Assembly (NCBI GenBank): GCA_037133055.1
Contig: JBAXOY010000001.1
Span: 1-64,000, forward strand
Direction: 5' to 3'
DNA length: 64,000 nt
From: Chlamydiota bacterium
Lineage (GTDB): Bacteria > Auribacterota > Tritonobacteria > UBA1439
Shown here: positions 12,001-21,000 of the stretch, in pieces
Position numbering within the stretch: position 1 is the stretch's first letter
Layout of the letters: every line of letters begins with the position of its first letter
Program-made: the position numbers

Positions 12001-15000
12001 ATGAGCTGCTGGAGGCCTACCCTCAGCCGGTCGAAGTAGGTGTACTCGCCGACCGCGGTCCACGGCAGTTCCTTCCCGACCGCCTTGCCGAAGCGCGCTC
12101 TCAGTTCGGTCATCGTGATGAAGAAGTTCTCCGGGTTGTCGCCGTAGCGCGCCCTGAACTGCGGGGGGAGCCCCTCCGCCTCGGCGAGCTTTGTGAAGTA
12201 ATCGGCCTTCATCGCCGCGGTGATCGGCGCGCGCGCCATGGCGATCGCCTTCACGTACGGGCCGCCGCCGAAGTTGCTCATGGCGATCGCCTTGAATATC
12301 TGCGTCTCGTTGACAAACCCGCCCGCGATCGCAATGTCGGGGATGTACTTCCCGTTCTCCCTGAGGATCCGCACCGCCTCGAGCACGATCGACTCGAGGT
12401 AGATCGTCGGCGTCGAGCAGTCCTGCATCATCGGGATCGGCGACATTCCCGTGCCCCCGCCCGCGCCGTCGAGCGTGAGGAGGTCCACTCTCGCCTGCGA
12501 GGCGCACTTGAGGATGAAGGCGATGGCGTACGGGTTGGGCGAGCCGGTCTTCATGAAAACCTTTTTCGCCCCCTCGCTCCTCAGCCACGCCACGTCCTCG
12601 ACGAAGCTTGTGCGCTCCGGCATCCCCACGCGCGAGTGGCGCTCGAAGGTGTCGAAGACCCGCTTCTTGAACGCCTCACGGACCGCCGGGTCCTCCGGGT
12701 CGGGGATGACCACGTAGCCGCGGCGCTTGAGCATCAGGGCTTTCTCGATCGTGTGGATGCGCACCTCGCCGCCGATGTTCTTCGCCCCCTGCCCCCACTT
12801 CCGCTCGATGATGTTCACACCGAGCTTCTTGATGGCGTACAGGTCCACGCCGGACCGCTGGTCCTCGACGTTCGTCTGGACGCCGATATCCCCGTATTCG
12901 CCGTCCCAGAAGGTGCGGTACTGGTCGATCCGGTACCTGAGCTGGGGCGAGTCGGTCACCATCCCGTTCGCGTCGAACTTCGCCTCCTCGTCCATGCCGC
13001 AGACGTTCTCGCCGATGATGTCGATGATCCCGGAGATCGCCGCCCCCATGGAGAGGCCGAGCCAGTTCCTCCTTGCGACATCAGTCGAGCCGAGGCCGGG
13101 GATGAGGAGCGGCAGCTTCACCTTCACGCCGCCAAGGGTCTGGGAGATGTCCACGTTCGGGAAGAGCGCCCTGTCGGAATCCTCCGCGATCCCCTTCGCG
13201 CCCCGCACCTCGACCATGATCTGGAGGTCGCACCAGTTCAGGCCGTAATCCTTGTTGGAGGCGGCGGTGGATTCGCCGAACCGCTCCGGCTCGGGGTAGA
13301 GCACCTCGCGGCCCCGAAAGGCGCTTTTCCCGATCTCGCAGAGCACCTTGCACTCGCGGATGCAGATCGGGCACATGCCGCTCAGGGGGGACGCGTCCCG
13401 CGTCCTCAGGCTCGTGCCGCTCGTCGAACGCGCGTTCTCTTTCAAGGGAATCTCCTGGTTGTCCGCGCATCGCGCGCGGGGGTGGAAAACCGCCTGCCCC
13501 CCGGAATCCCGGGGAAAGGGGGATTATACATGAAAGGGCGGCACTGCGGGACAAGGATTCCCTTGCGGTCCCCCCTTACCCCCCGCGGGGATTTCCGCTT
13601 GCGGCGCATCCCCCGTTTCCCTATACTCTACTCATTCCAATCCGCCGGCACGAGAGCGTTCGTCACCGGCCTGCGCCGTGGGGGAATTTATGCTCCGGAA
13701 TATCATCATCAGGAATCGCTACGTCGACTCGGTCATGCTGATGTCCATCGCCGCGAAGGCGAAGGGGTGGGCGGGCGTCGAGGAGGTCTCGGCGATGATG
13801 GGCACCGGCGCCAACAAGGAGCTCCTCTCCTCCGCGGGCCTGCTCGCCGACGAGGGGCGCGCGGCGGCCCCGATGGACCTCGTCATCGCCGTCCGGGCGG
13901 CGGATGAAGCCGCCGCCGTGAAAGCCGCCGCGGCGGTGCAGGAGTTCCTCTCCCGGCGCCCTGAAACGCCCGCCGGCGACGCGAAGGCCGCTCCGCGCTC
14001 CCTCTCGGGCGCGCTGTCGGCGATGCCGGACGCCAACCTCCTCTTCATCTCCCTCCCCGGGGCCTACGCGCGCCGGGAGGCCGAAGCGGCGCTCGATCGC
14101 GGCCTCCACGTGATGATCTTCAGCGACAACGTCCCGATCGGGGAGGAGATCGCGCTGAAGAAGAAGGCCCGCGGCCTCGGCCTGATCGTGATGGGCCCCG
14201 ACTGCGGCACCGCGATCATCGGCGACGTCGCCCTCGGCTTCGCGAACGTGGTGAACCACGGCCCCATCGGCATCGTCGGGGCGTCGGGCACCGGGATACA
14301 GGAGGTGAGCTGCATCATCTCGAACAGCGGGCTCGGCATCACGCACGCCATCGGCCTCGGGGGGCGCGACCTCAAGGAGGAGGTGGGCGGGATCAGCATG
14401 CTTCAGGGGATCGAGGCGCTCGACGCCGACCCGGCCACGAAGCTGATCGTCCTCATCTCGAAGCCCCCCGCCCCGTCGGTCGCGGCGAGGGTGCTCGACA
14501 GGGCGGAGAAATGCTCTAAACCGGTCGTGGTGAATTTTCTGAAGGGCGACCCCGCCGAGGCGGCGAAACGCGGACTCGCCTTCTCACCCACCCTCGAGGA
14601 AGCCGCCCTGATGGCGGTCGAAATGGCCGGGGGCCAAGCGCGCCCCCCCGCGGGCGTCGCCCCGGAGGTCCGTCTGATCGCCGCGGAGGAACGGGCGCGG
14701 CTCGCCCCGGGCCAAAACTATATCCGGGGGCTCTTTTCCGGCGGCACGCTCACCGATGAGGCGCTGCTCGTGCTCCGGGACTACGTCGGGGAATGCCATT
14801 CCAACACGCCGCTCGTGCCCGGGATGAAGCTCGCGGACGCGGGTAAGAGCGTGGAGAACTGCCTTGTGGATCTCGGGGACGACGAGTTCACCCGCGGGCG
14901 GCCGCACCCGATGATCGACTTCACACTGCGCTGCGAGCGGATCGTCCGGGAGGCGGAAGACCCGGAGACCGCGGTGATCCTGCTGGACGTGGTGCTCGGC

Positions 15001-18000: not shown

Positions 18001-21000
18001 TGAGCGAGAAGAAGGAGATACCGGTCTTCATCGAGCACCTGGACGCGGAAAAGCTCCACGCGCAGGGGCGCTTCCTTCTCCCGCCGGTGATGCTCTACGG
18101 CGACGAGATCACGCACATCGTCACCGAGAAGGGGATCGCCGTGCTCCACCGCTGCCCGGACATCCCCGTCCGCCAGGCCGCGATAAGGGCCGTCGCGGGG
18201 GACACCCCTCTCGGCAGGAAGGAAAAGAAGGCGGAGACCGAGCGCTTGCGGGCGGAGAAGATCGTCCTCTGCCCCGAAGACCTCAACCTGAAACCGGAGG
18301 ACGCCCGCCACGACCTGCTCGCCGCGAGGTCTATCGCAGACCTCGTGACGGCCTCCGACGGCCTCTACAAGCCCCCCGCCAGGTTCGTCGGAGAATAGAC
18401 ATCAGGATTGCAACTGCTCAGGAGCCAGAATTCAGGAGTCAGAAGTCAGGAGTTAGAATAAGGACGCCGGCGGTGATAGTTGAGAACTTGAAATATGGCG
18501 ATGGTTCCGGGCTGGATTCAGTACGCTGCGGGAAGTGTATCCGGGACCCATTCTGAATTCTGGCTTCTGGCTTCTGACTACCTGAATAGTTACACAGGAT
18601 CAACCATCAACCAGGGAGGTTCTCATGACGATCGGCACGCGTACCCGCGCGCATGCGCTATGCGCCGCGCTCACCGCTCTCACGCTGCTCTTTTTCGCCG
18701 CCGGCGCCTGCGCCAAGGGGCAGGCGGCTCCCGCGGAGAAAACCACGCTCGACAATCTCCTCGCCGCCTACAACGGCGAGAGCAACGCCCACGCGCGCTA
18801 CCTGGCGTTCGCCGCGAAGGCTGACGAGGAGGGGTTCGGGCAGGCGGCGAGCCTCTTCAGGGCGGTCGCCAGGGCCGAGCAGGTCCACTACGAGCGTCAC
18901 GCGGAGGTGATCAGGAAACTCGGCGGAACCCCGGAGGCGAAAATCGAAACGCCCTCGGTGAAAACCACGAAGGAGAACCTCGAAGAGGCGGTGAAGGGCG
19001 AGACATACGAGACCGAAGTGATGTACCCGGCATTCCTCGCGCAGGCGAAGAAGGAGAAGAAGGCCGACGCGGTCGACGCGTTCGAGGACGCGAAGGCGGC
19101 GGAGGCCGTCCACGCCGGATGGTACAAGAAGGTGCTCGCGAATCTGGATGGATGGAAGGGCGCGAAGAAGGAGTTTTCAGTGTGCCCCGTCTGCGGGAAC
19201 GTCGTGGACGTGCTCCCGGGACCGGCGTGCCCCATCTGCCTGACCGACACGAAAAAGTTCATCCCGGTGAGATGAGGGATCGTGTCCCCGGCGCCGGACG
19301 CGGCGCCGCCGTTTCGTCGAAGCGAAAGGGATCGGCGGATGAGAGCCCGCCGATCCCTTTTTATGTCGTCGCCCCTCGGTCTCCTCCCCTTCCCGGGGGA
19401 GCGACCGGGTGGGATCACCCATCAAGACTTCTTGAGATAATTCGCCTTCACCCATCCCCAGTTGAGCGTGAGGTGCGTGACCGCCAGGGCGATCAGCAGC
19501 ACGCCGTTGTGCTCGTGGGCCTCGAACACCGTCTGTGTGAACGGCGTTCTCAACCGGAAGGCGATGATGCCGCCCGTGACCGCCTGCACGGCGAGGGAAA
19601 GAAACAGCACGGGATTCACGATCCGCAGCCATTTTTGTTTATTCATCCGCACCTGCCTTGTTGGGTGGGGTCCGGACCCCACGGTCGAGCACGCATCCGA
19701 GGATCTCCGTCAGGGACGCCACATGGTAGCGCTTCTGAATGAAGCCCGCAAGACCATTCCCCGCGAGATAAAGAAAAAGTCAGAACATCACCCGCCATCA
19801 TTCCCCCGTCATCATCGTTCGCCGCAGGGAGCGCGGGGCAGGTTAGTCAATAGTCGAGGTCTGATGCTTTTTCGGGCATAGGCGAACCGTGCGCGAGCGG
19901 TACCACGAGTGGAGATACGCGCGATCGCCGGACGTTATTAGTGCATAGTAAAAGTCTACCCTGAATTTTTCCTTAATTATTGAACTTTCCAACCAAATAT
20001 ATCGGTATCGTACGGTATGTCAAAACAATCTGCAGACGCATCAGCGCACATGGAAGGAGCTCCTCGATCAGAACAGTTATTTCCCGTTGAAAGGGAATAT
20101 TCCCGTTGCGTTACCGCCTTAAACCGCACCGGCATTCTCACACTTCTTCCGAAATCAGAAAGCATTGGAGTGATTGGAATGGATGGAAAAGAGTATCCAC
20201 TGCCAACCCAAAAACAGGGAGCTTGTGCCGACTGATCGCTGGTTTCGAGACGTTGGGCGGGCTCGCTTGGATATGCACCGTACAGGCAATAAGCTTTGCA
20301 CGAGGAGTTGGGGGGGGTCCTCCACGGTGAGACTGCTCGCTCTGTTCTGAAGACACGATGCATTGTGTGTTTCTGTCTATGGCCGAACGAAAAGCATCAG
20401 GATTTGCCGCGCCTTGGCGATAGTATCCTGGATGCCTTTGTTGGCTTTTCCGGTGTCTTTAGTATCTTCAGACCGCAGTATTCGGCTAGGGGATTAAAGT
20501 CGCGATCATTGTGCAAAAGAGGAATGTCATGTTCAATCGCCACGGCAGCAATCATGCAGTCAACGGTGTTGCGGATCGTGATCCCTTTGTGCCGCACTAT
20601 CCGATACAGTTCCGCGGCCTTTACGAAAGTATGCTGGTTCATCGGGAGGAACAGGAAAGAGTCGAATCGGGACAATGTATCGAGATAGTCTTCGTTTTTA
20701 CGAATCCCTTGTAGGACTTCGGTAAGGATAACCCCGCAGATACAGATGTCTTCCCCCGCGTTAAGAATTTGCTCCAGCGTATGGACCTCCGGCGAATTTT
20801 TCCCATGAAAAAAATCGATCCATACGGATGTGTCGATGATGATCATGTCATCCCTCTGCCTCTTCGCCAAGCGCTGAGGTTGCCTCGCCATGAAATCCGG
20901 CCCTTCAATTCCAAGACTTTCTTTTGACACGCATGCCGGAGGAGTTCCTGCAGGGCGTGATCAATGACCCCCCTGCGCGTCCTAATGCCGGTTTCCTTCT

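Follow-up and report, generated by a model that had tools for sequence, protein, structure and literature searches.

The protein encoded at 16731-18398 of the window (the whole 64,000-nucleotide stretch analyzed here, from a Chlamydiota bacterium of the class Tritonobacteria) is a stand-alone MdcA, the malonate decarboxylase alpha subunit, which, judging from its sequence, probably works as a malonate CoA-transferase without the carrier protein MdcC. From the gene layout, residue pattern, and co-occurrence that we observed, we infer each activity and substrate named below. The protein would belong to an MdcA subfamily that acts on free CoA thioesters, converting acetyl-CoA and malonate to malonyl-CoA and acetate (EC 2.8.3.3) by the same direct anhydride mechanism as has been put forward for MdcA. 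That this transferase role goes together with a malonate supply from barbiturate through AllFGH is, in our estimate, an even call.

The fdrA-allG-mdcA locus

The stand-alone mdcA follows fdrA/allF and allG on the same strand (Table 1), which agrees with an earlier note on this DNA that had placed a second MdcA behind fdrA-yahG and apart from the mdc operon; the end coordinate given there, 18398, was also correct. The encoded protein belongs to the MdcA family over its full length and scores above the curated TIGR01110 cutoff. The longest open reading frame begins at GTG 16698, and ATG 16731 was favored as the start because of the length of the homologues (555 aa). Genes for a carrier, a carboxyltransferase, or prosthetic-group synthesis were not found near mdcA at the window locus; a complete operon (mdcA-C-D-E-G-B-H) lies on a separate contig, C8, and its MdcA is 59.5% identical to the stand-alone copy. 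The fdrA/allF product is predicted from sequence to be a succinyl-CoA-ligase-like subunit of an AllFGH-type acylurea carbamoyltransferase. The AllFGH set is complete in the genome: besides the allF and allG of the window, contig C61 carries allH together with cyclase and uridine phosphorylase genes, and C7 carries carbamate kinase (398.7 bits; cutoff, 358.25). A scan for promoters and terminators gave nothing scoring above shuffled sequences.

Table 1. Features of the window discussed in the text
Feature	Position	Strand	Evidence
Aldehyde:ferredoxin oxidoreductase (AOR)	264-2291	+	PF01314, PF02730
Bmp-type ABC importer (two permeases, ATPase, PnrA-like binding protein)	6155-11000	-	PF02608, PF02653, PF00005
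fdrA/allF (YahF-like)	13690-15234	+	NF004760, 527.8 bits (cutoff, 433); PF00549, PF02629; start ATG 13690
allG (YahG/YlbE, DUF1116)	15236-16660	+	PF06545, E 1e-92; 1 nt past fdrA stop
mdcA, stand-alone, 555 aa	16731 (ATG)-18398	+	TIGR01110, 798.4 bits (cutoff, 789.15); PF16957, 837.6 bits

As context of the locus, the Bmp-type importer, which probably serves nucleoside uptake, was found upstream of fdrA in genomes G007 and G008 as well. The AOR gene is the sole match to its query in the genome, and an AOR gene also lies upstream of fdrA in G004 and G006.

We reproduced the class counts of the earlier note: MdcA occurs in 9/9 class genomes, the carrier family PF06857 in 3/9 (the same three that have a second MdcA), and malonyl-CoA decarboxylase (MCD) in 8/9. 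The order in which mdcA stands behind yahG/allG, previously reported for 5 of 6 family loci, proved stronger than stated, with allG immediately 5' of the stand-alone mdcA in all eight family genomes (seven on a single contig and G006 via overlapping contig ends). In G001 and G021, which are more distant, a diaminopropionate ammonia-lyase-like PLP enzyme lies 3' of mdcA (assigned in G021 by sequence likeness). The cyclase was present in 9/9 class genomes.

Active site and carrier-docking surface

We aligned the window MdcA to Pseudomonas MdcA (PDB 5VIT; E 2e-190, full length), taking active-site and interface residues from PMC5534430; identity to canonical homologues was 61 to 65%. All ten active-site residues of the Pseudomonas enzyme (R341, N292, Q345, F312, N59, Y134, G381, N258, I261, and R228) were identical; in window numbering these positions are N56, Y131, R222, N252, I255, N286, F306, R335, Q339, and G375. 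Across 50 subfamily sequences (4 of 54 were set aside as shorter than 380 aa), R341, N292, F312, Y134, N258, and G381 were invariant, and the Q345 column was split between Q (17) and H (33), the latter being found in all three operon copies as well.

The MdcC-docking residues, in contrast, were replaced (F424V, E466K, and I490D; docking-region residues P422, V424, K467, and D491 in window numbering). The F424 column is F or Y in 90/90 canonical homologues and in 3/3 operon copies and is aromatic in 0/27 close and 2/50 wider subfamily sequences; E466 is E in 90/90 canonical homologues, 0/27 close sequences, and 5/50 wider sequences; the I490 column is Y, F, or H in canonical homologues and D in 27/27 close sequences. 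All three columns had been left free in the motif with which the subfamily was searched. In Pseudomonas, F424A alone breaks the holoenzyme tetramer, and the single mutants E466A and I490A left the complex intact (PMC5534430). According to the accessible part of PMC9813914, CoA esters serve as in vitro substrates of MdcA-family enzymes. Support for subfamily monophyly was weak (0.43), and a structure prediction of MdcA from an 11-row alignment was set aside (mean pLDDT, 40.4).

Compared with MdcA/MadA (EC 2.3.1.187; PDB 5VIT and 6MPR; TIGR01110), the stand-alone copy thus shares full-length homology and the ten active-site residues, with no catalytic acid introduced at active-site positions, whereas it differs in the three docking residues, in lacking MdcC, D, E, G, and B as neighbors, and in the neighbors that it does have, which are AllFG and amide hydrolases. 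Of the malonate decarboxylase holoenzyme (MdcACDE/Mad), the window copy has neither the gene set nor the MdcC-docking pattern.

Distribution outside the class

A motif scan picked up this MdcA type in 53 genomes of GTDB; the 6 loci that came from the class were excluded, which left 47 outside genomes, all drafts of unstated completeness. These are not independent, because 25 belong to the Verrucomicrobiota/Kiritimatiellae/Lentisphaerae, and 13 of the 47 loci span less than 8 kb. The gene caller missed mdcA in loci L059 and L063, and neighbor counts were therefore rechecked with tblastn.

MdcC was found in 0/47 outside genomes, an absence judged by one profile (PF06857) in draft genomes; the profile matched one genome, where the protein reads as CitD and precedes a CitE-like gene. 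It had no match in G021 either (0/1). None of the 47 loci held mdcC, mdcE, mdcG, or mdcB. Together with the class counts, these numbers bear out the earlier statement that most carriers of the stand-alone MdcA have no MdcC, and the kept malonate pocket, the lost MdcC interface, and the absence of MdcC in the 47 support the suggested role of malonate CoA-transferase.

Genome-wide, the protein tracked AllG (34/47) and one specific nitrilase-family amidase (32/47, 31 of them with AllG); 12/47 had neither. Within the phylum, AllG occurred in 11/11 genomes with MdcA versus 14/68 without it. Among the outside loci with genes called, allG was never immediately beside mdcA, and it lay within 8 kb in 2/47. 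An amide hydrolase adjoined mdcA in 19 loci (a nitrilase in 15/47; in a further 4, an amidase of the amidase-signature type). Some 800-aa neighbors were rejected as XDH subunits, their Pfam matches being Omp85 and TPR proteins. In 20 AllG neighborhoods, a nonrandom set chosen for intact matches from 35 AllG-positive genomes, allG was followed by a cyclase in 13 cases and by an XDH-type large subunit in 6. At locus L083 the order was allG, cyclase, nitrilase, mdcA, MmdA-like gene, biotin carrier, and Na+-pump beta subunit.

The carrier of MdcA has a CoA-like arm that depends on MdcB/MdcG. That the protein is still an acyl-carrier-protein transferase whose carrier PF06857 misses (for example, the fatty-acid ACP), or serves a housekeeping malonate salvage unrelated to nucleobases, would fit the single profile, the fabF/fabD genes after mdcA in L083, and the unrelated housekeeping neighbors (aconitase, MBOAT, and Omp85) of many Kiritimatiellae-type loci. 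We consider this very improbable: the carrier-facing loops have turned from acidic/aromatic to basic (SEKK and E466K), the arm-making genes were missing from the 47 loci (loci only), and the tracking of AllG and nitrilase speaks for a catabolic role.

Fate of malonyl-CoA

In this family, a soluble MCD would turn malonyl-CoA back into acetyl-CoA, so that MdcA and MCD would stand in place of the seven-gene mdc operon. The MCD of this genome aligns to solved MCDs in its TLSP and NFHL segments, presumably the catalytic ones. Its gene lies after dnaG-rpoD on contig C35, away from mdcA, and "paired," as the earlier note put it, therefore means co-occurrence only. The pairing held within the family (MCD in 8/8 genomes) and failed outside the class, where MCD in 4/47 genomes rules it out as a universal partner. 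A sodium-pumping decarboxylase was likewise ruled out as the class partner (OadB-type beta subunit in 0/5 class genomes). An MmdA-like gene was present in 15/47 outside genomes at E ≤ 1e-100, none above the curated cutoff and none in the four MCD-bearing genomes; 28/47 had neither gene. In other lineages, a biotin carboxyltransferase may consume malonyl-CoA, or fatty-acid synthesis may be fed.

Rhizobial MatB/MatA use malonate through malonyl-CoA synthetase and malonyl-CoA decarboxylase. As in the system proposed here, malonyl-CoA is made with free CoA and then passed to MCD; the differences are the ATP-consuming ligase, where CoA transfer would operate here, and that MCD is unlinked here.

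Source of malonate

The malonate would come from pyrimidine breakdown. Uridine phosphorylase would release uracil, an XDH-family molybdoenzyme would convert it to barbiturate, and a cyclase-family hydrolase would open the ring to ureidomalonate. AllFGH would then split ureidomalonate by phosphorolysis to malonamate and carbamoyl phosphate, yielding ATP via carbamate kinase, on a substrate one CH2 longer than in the known oxalurate reaction; an amidase would finally release malonate. This oxidative route fits the whole subfamily best. The neighbors of the AllFGH genes are of pyrimidine type.

Several observations count against it. A nitrilase-family candidate for the malonamidase is absent from 7/9 class genomes, this one included; a GNAT-fold gene occupies its slot in six of the seven, for which an Atlas look-up gave generic acetyltransferase clusters only and no known amidase role. 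Three XDH-family large subunits are encoded in this genome, but the best uracil-oxidizing candidate (C3) is 38% identical to AllG-linked XDH enzymes, on a long branch, and lies away from the cluster with no FAD-subunit gene called beside it. The outside genomes without MCD or MmdA-like gene, and those without AllG and nitrilase, also stand against it. Our searches found no close solved or curated relative of the nitrilase or the cyclase. The amidase that adjoins mdcA in deltaproteobacterial loci matches peptide amidase at E 9e-81 and malonamidase E2 less closely (E 1.5e-21), and homology therefore does not name its substrate.

The same transferase might instead be fed reductively from uracil, a reading that we think rather unlikely, that is nevertheless a serious rival within this family, and that can run alongside the oxidative route. 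PreTA, dihydropyrimidinase, and a ureidopropionase-like nitrilase would lead to beta-alanine, transamination to malonate semialdehyde, and AOR to malonate, with MdcA and MCD finishing; thymine would give methylmalonate for the neighboring family III CoA-transferase and methylmalonyl-CoA mutase. This genome has a gene for every step (preT, preA, dihydropyrimidinase, and a class III aminotransferase on C28), the ureidopropionase label being by context (best model AguB, below the cutoff). PreA was found in 8/8 class genomes tested. In G006 and G007 the genes for the reductive steps are no more than about 15 kb away from mdcA, match those of C28 and C61 here at 81 to 88%, and pass NF006183 and TIGR02033. 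Both gene sets cluster with mdcA in the family, whose AOR genes upstream of fdrA (three genomes, this one included) are joined by mutase genes upstream of fdrA in G004, G005, and G006; this genome has no nitrilase amidase, and six deltaproteobacterial genomes have PreA and neither AllG nor nitrilase. On the other side, PreA was above the cutoff in only 14/47 outside genomes, and 27 had AllG or nitrilase and no PreA; the fixed fdrA-allG-mdcA order in the family and the amide hydrolases beside mdcA are left unexplained, and AOR and the aminotransferase are candidates of putative specificity. The uracil link via PreTA in the earlier note thus stood for the family, where MCD and PreA (7/7 tested) co-occur with mdcA and the PreTA route may therefore run, and not in general for genomes outside the class.

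Another AllFGH-made acid as the substrate of the carrier-free protein, whether malonamate itself or the oxamate/oxalate that purine breakdown would yield from oxalurate, seems improbable. The only proven AllFGH reaction in the accessible part of PMC11326118 turns oxalurate into oxamate plus carbamoyl phosphate; such a substrate would also suit the missing nitrilase in most class genomes, the purine-breakdown genes of this genome (SsnA, YgeY, and XDH-family enzymes), and the ammonia-lyase after mdcA in G001 and G021. Yet no variation was seen at R341 (ion pair to the second carboxylate), at N292, or at F312 (beneath the methylene), the commonest mdcA neighbor is an amide hydrolase, which points to a diacid, and L083 has a Na+-pumping acyl-CoA decarboxylase right behind mdcA. 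The earlier note had held a role with FdrA-YahG, on oxamate or another acid, in reserve. Since the protein tracks AllFG and nitrilase outside the class, that association comes closer to what holds in general; as for oxamate, it is an unlikely substrate because of the invariant arginine and because no oxalyl-CoA decarboxylase scored above the cutoff in the five genomes tested.

Discussion

The malonate decarboxylase of Pseudomonas ovalis is known to show EC 2.8.3.3, the reaction that sequence suggests for the stand-alone MdcA, and the accessible part of a 2021 review (PMC8307300) gives no KEGG function number for this activity; what is a side activity there would be the physiological role here. 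Our searches found no dedicated stand-alone gene for it. A literature search that covered few subscription papers (the original MdcA biochemistry lay outside it) found no carrier-free MdcA and no AllFGH acting on ureidomalonate. Escherichia coli AllFGH oxamic transcarbamylase, as far as the accessible part of PMC11326118 describes it, matches this genome in allF, allG, and allH homologues with carbamate kinase, but here their neighbors are a cyclase, uridine phosphorylase, and MdcA instead of allantoin genes, and ureidomalonate is the proposed substrate. The oxidative pyrimidine pathway, which uses barbiturase (EC 3.5.2.1) and a ureidomalonase (accessible part of PMC3758960), has the same proposed barbiturate, ureidomalonate, and malonate; here, however, the urea part would exit as carbamoyl phosphate and ammonia instead of urea, and the AtzD/barbiturase family matched 0/5 genomes, with controls equally blank.

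We tentatively propose, at somewhat less than even confidence, that this multiphylum MdcA subfamily is a dedicated EC 2.8.3.3 gene that completes a pyrimidine pathway not described before, anaerobic and yielding ATP (XDH-like hydroxylase, cyclase-family barbiturase, AllFGH, malonamidase, MdcA, and an interchangeable decarboxylase); the amidase may be replaced in this family by a GNAT-fold protein, and MdcA with MCD would form a two-protein malonate decarboxylase. MdcA-family transferases have been described as parts of carrier-protein complexes. If the reading is true, EC 2.8.3.3 gains a gene, and in the carrier-free branch nature has exchanged a protein carrier for free CoA, a switch that can be traced to a few surface residues. 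Polyketide and fatty-acid engineering would profit from a route that turns malonate into malonyl-CoA at no cost in ATP. The automated label "malonate decarboxylase alpha" would misread the metabolism of dozens of uncultured anaerobes, in which mdcA would anchor the lower end of the proposed anaerobic barbiturate route, with malonate as its product.

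A probable carrier-free mdcA behind allG

The window mdcA scored above the curated TIGR01110 cutoff (798.4 versus 789.15), and close homologues of its product carry the database label Candidatus Aureabacteria. Upstream of fdrA, the window encodes an ABC importer of the Bmp type and an aldehyde:ferredoxin oxidoreductase (AOR), and the genes directly behind the AOR gene probably serve sulfur supply. The genome (G000) encodes a second MdcA on contig C8, 59.5% identical to the window copy, within a complete mdcA-C-D-E-G-B-H operon with a dicarboxylate symporter close by.

Coordinates of the locus, its neighbors and other genes discussed
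Feature	Location	Strand	Remarks
fdrA/allF	window 13690-15234	+
allG	window 15236-16660	+	1-nt gap after fdrA/allF
mdcA	window 16731 (ATG)-18398	+	555 aa; 70-nt gap after allG
Metallo-beta-lactamase/rhodanese fusion, two YeeE/YedE-type membrane proteins	window 2304-6114	+	one membrane protein rhodanese-fused
528-aa protein, weak glutamate-synthase FMN-domain match	window 11859-13445	-	divergent upstream of fdrA; also in class genome G006
Rubrerythrin-like	window 18625-19275	+	downstream of mdcA; apparent signal-like N terminus
VapC PIN domain	window 20397-20930	-	downstream of mdcA
C8 operon MdcA	G000:C8:16840-18477 (L001:8838-10484)	-
GNAT-fold gene, 210 aa	G000:C61:14667-15380 (L043:11665-12297)	-	after uridine phosphorylase
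Stand-alone mdcA of G002	L031:1396-2889 (G002:C97)		internal deletion
Diaminopropionate ammonia-lyase	L034:10504-13512 (G001); L042:7793-10819 (G021); L062		right after or near carrier-free mdcA
Family III CoA-transferase/mutase cluster	L028:6562-11874, L029, L033; G000 C7:18799-23562
Purine-type genes	window 27912-29102	+
Purine-type genes	G000 C7:28256-35761, C19:24964-36468, C78:11339-12637

The stand-alone locus is a real, conserved feature. The earlier note had counted MdcA in 9/9 class genomes, the carrier family PF06857 (MdcC) in the three that also have a second MdcA, and malonyl-CoA decarboxylase (MCD) in eight, and we reproduced all of these counts. AllG is likewise present in 9/9, and the placement of allG directly 5′ of the stand-alone mdcA held in all eight family genomes, seven on a single contig and G006 through a junction spanned by two overlapping contig ends. 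The MCD gene, whose product can be aligned with solved MCDs, is unlinked to mdcA and lies on C35 behind dnaG-rpoD. In G002, which also has a full mdc operon, the stand-alone copy bears an in-frame deletion of about 50 codons spanning the R228 region, reflecting either decay or an assembly error.

Malonate pocket and MdcC-facing residues

We mapped the window MdcA onto Pseudomonas MdcA (PDB 5VIT) using residues listed in PMC5534430. All 10 active-site residues were identical, including R341, N292 and Q345, which grip malonate at its far carboxylate, and F312, which lies under the methylene. At MdcC-facing positions, the window protein has V for F424, K for E466, D for I490 and P for E422; the same source reports that F424A alone broke the Pseudomonas holoenzyme and that neither E466A nor I490A alone disrupted it. 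Among 99 more distant homologues, 90 have F/Y at 424, E at 466 and Y/F/H at 490, a pattern common to all three operon copies of the class, and the remaining 9 have the stand-alone pattern. No aromatic residue occurs at 424 in 27 close sequences, a partly redundant set. The three class operon copies have Pro at the F312 position, which sets them apart from the 99 other homologues, and His at Q345.

A degenerate search motif that left positions 424, 466 and 490 free matched all nine stand-alone class copies, no operon copy, and 53 of 185,579 GTDB genomes, 6 of them in the class. Going by their record titles, the 47 outside genomes comprise 25 Verrucomicrobiota/Kiritimatiellae/Lentisphaerae, 6 deltaproteobacteria, 2 Elusimicrobiota, 3 of the PVC group and 11 without a group label. 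Across 50 sequences long enough for alignment (class loci and G021 included), R341, N292, F312, Y134, N258 and G381 were invariant, while F424 was retained in 2 and E466 in 5. A FastTree tree placed the subfamily in one clade with weak support (0.43) and the class operon copies among canonical MdcA.

None of the 47 outside loci contained mdcC, mdcE, mdcG or mdcB, and the same MdcC query recovered both operon controls. PF06857 was not found in G021 and matched in one outside genome; we take this match to be CitD because a citrate-lyase-beta-like gene comes next. The 47 genomes are drafts of unstated completeness, many of them kin, but such gaps can hardly account for the absence of MdcC from all 47. 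MdcA-family enzymes, whose natural substrates are on carrier proteins, accept CoA esters in vitro (PMC9813914), and a malonate transferase using free CoA would therefore be a short evolutionary step. The retained pocket, altered MdcC-facing residues and missing MdcC support well the earlier prediction of a carrier-free malonate CoA-transferase, and the subfamily protein is likely such an enzyme.

EC 2.8.3.3 is known as an activity of the whole malonate decarboxylase, and a 2021 review gave it no KEGG function number (PMC8307300); anaerobic malonate use is portrayed as carrier based (PMC8085960). Malonate, pyrimidine, uracil and purine are absent from PMC9324843, on Ca. Auribacterota genomes, as far as its main text goes; parts of PMC12625717 and a term search of PMC12799670 added nothing on what is known or new. 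We found no description of a carrier-free MdcA in the literature searched, whose scope excluded most subscription papers.

Genomic partners and the supply of malonate

The earlier note had paired MdcA with MCD and with uracil reduction by PreTA, and both pairings held within this lineage but not elsewhere: MCD occurs in 4/47 outside genomes (an MmdA-like carboxyltransferase in 15 others, neither in 28) and PreA exceeds the cutoff in 14/47. AllG is present in 34/47 and one nitrilase-family protein in 32/47, of which 31 also have AllG. Within the phylum, AllG occurs in 11/11 genomes with MdcA versus 14/68 without, with clustering by family. The nitrilase gene directly adjoins mdcA in 15/47 outside loci, and an amidase-signature amidase does so in 4 deltaproteobacterial loci. 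In 19 of 20 AllG neighborhoods fdrA comes before allG; a gene for a cyclase-family hydrolase comes after allG in 13, and one for a xanthine dehydrogenase (XDH)-type large subunit does so in 6. One locus (L096) reads nitrilase, mdcA, three XDH-type subunits, allH, fdrA; another (L083) reads allG, cyclase, nitrilase, mdcA and a Na+-pumping decarboxylase set. The cyclase gene is present in 9/9 class genomes, most class loci seen have an allH-cyclase-uridine phosphorylase run, and G000 has a carbamate kinase gene. In L112, L118 and L121, fdrA-allG-cyclase-XDH is preceded by a thiolase-like gene and one for a small zinc-ribbon protein, joined in the latter two loci by the GNAT gene; G000 has no close match to the thiolase/zinc-ribbon pair.

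In Escherichia coli, AllFGH turns oxalurate plus phosphate into oxamate and carbamoyl phosphate (PMC11326118), and ureidomalonate is the ring-opened barbiturate of the oxidative pyrimidine pathway (PMC3758960). We propose that AllFGH here would act on ureidomalonate, one CH2 longer than oxalurate; the recurring genes would then supply the successive steps, by a molybdoenzyme, a ring-opening hydrolase, AllFGH, an amidase, MdcA and a decarboxylase. We infer every activity in this scheme. That MdcA acts on oxamate is the weaker reading, because the malonate pocket is unchanged and oxalyl-CoA decarboxylase exceeded the cutoff in none of five genomes tested.

Several observations count against oxidative supply in the class. 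Only G007 and G008 have the nitrilase; a GNAT-fold gene, at the nitrilase's place in G000, occurs in six of the seven other genomes (G006 has neither) and in neither nitrilase-bearing one, and its product may do the nitrilase's job by different chemistry. The best uracil dehydrogenase candidate of G000 (on C3) is unlinked, on a long branch and 38% identical to AllG-linked enzymes. A diaminopropionate ammonia-lyase-like gene, directly after the stand-alone mdcA in G001 and G021, is found immediately behind or close to mdcA in three genomes in all and is not accounted for by the proposed model.

Malonate from the reductive pyrimidine route is credible within the family, since the gene set is complete in G000 (C28, C61), PreA is present in 8/8 class genomes tested, in G006 and G007 the reductive genes form a cluster with mdcA, and fdrA has an AOR gene upstream of it in three family genomes and methylmalonyl-CoA mutase genes in three. 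In three family genomes the region upstream of fdrA carries a family III CoA-transferase gene followed by genes for the mutase, MeaB and an epimerase, a candidate cluster for methylmalonate activation from thymine carbon. G000 also encodes YgeY, SsnA, a YgfK-like flavoprotein, XDH-family subunits, carbamate kinase, extra carbamoyltransferases and PLP lyases; together, these scattered purine-type genes suggest a gene set for anaerobic urate breakdown.

In the oxidative scheme, ATP would derive from carbamoyl phosphate. Since the Na+-pump beta subunit was found in none of five class genomes tested, MdcA and MCD in the class would act as a disposal cycle that recycles CoA, or else would supply malonyl-CoA. 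Within the family, the oxidative and reductive routes may converge on malonate.
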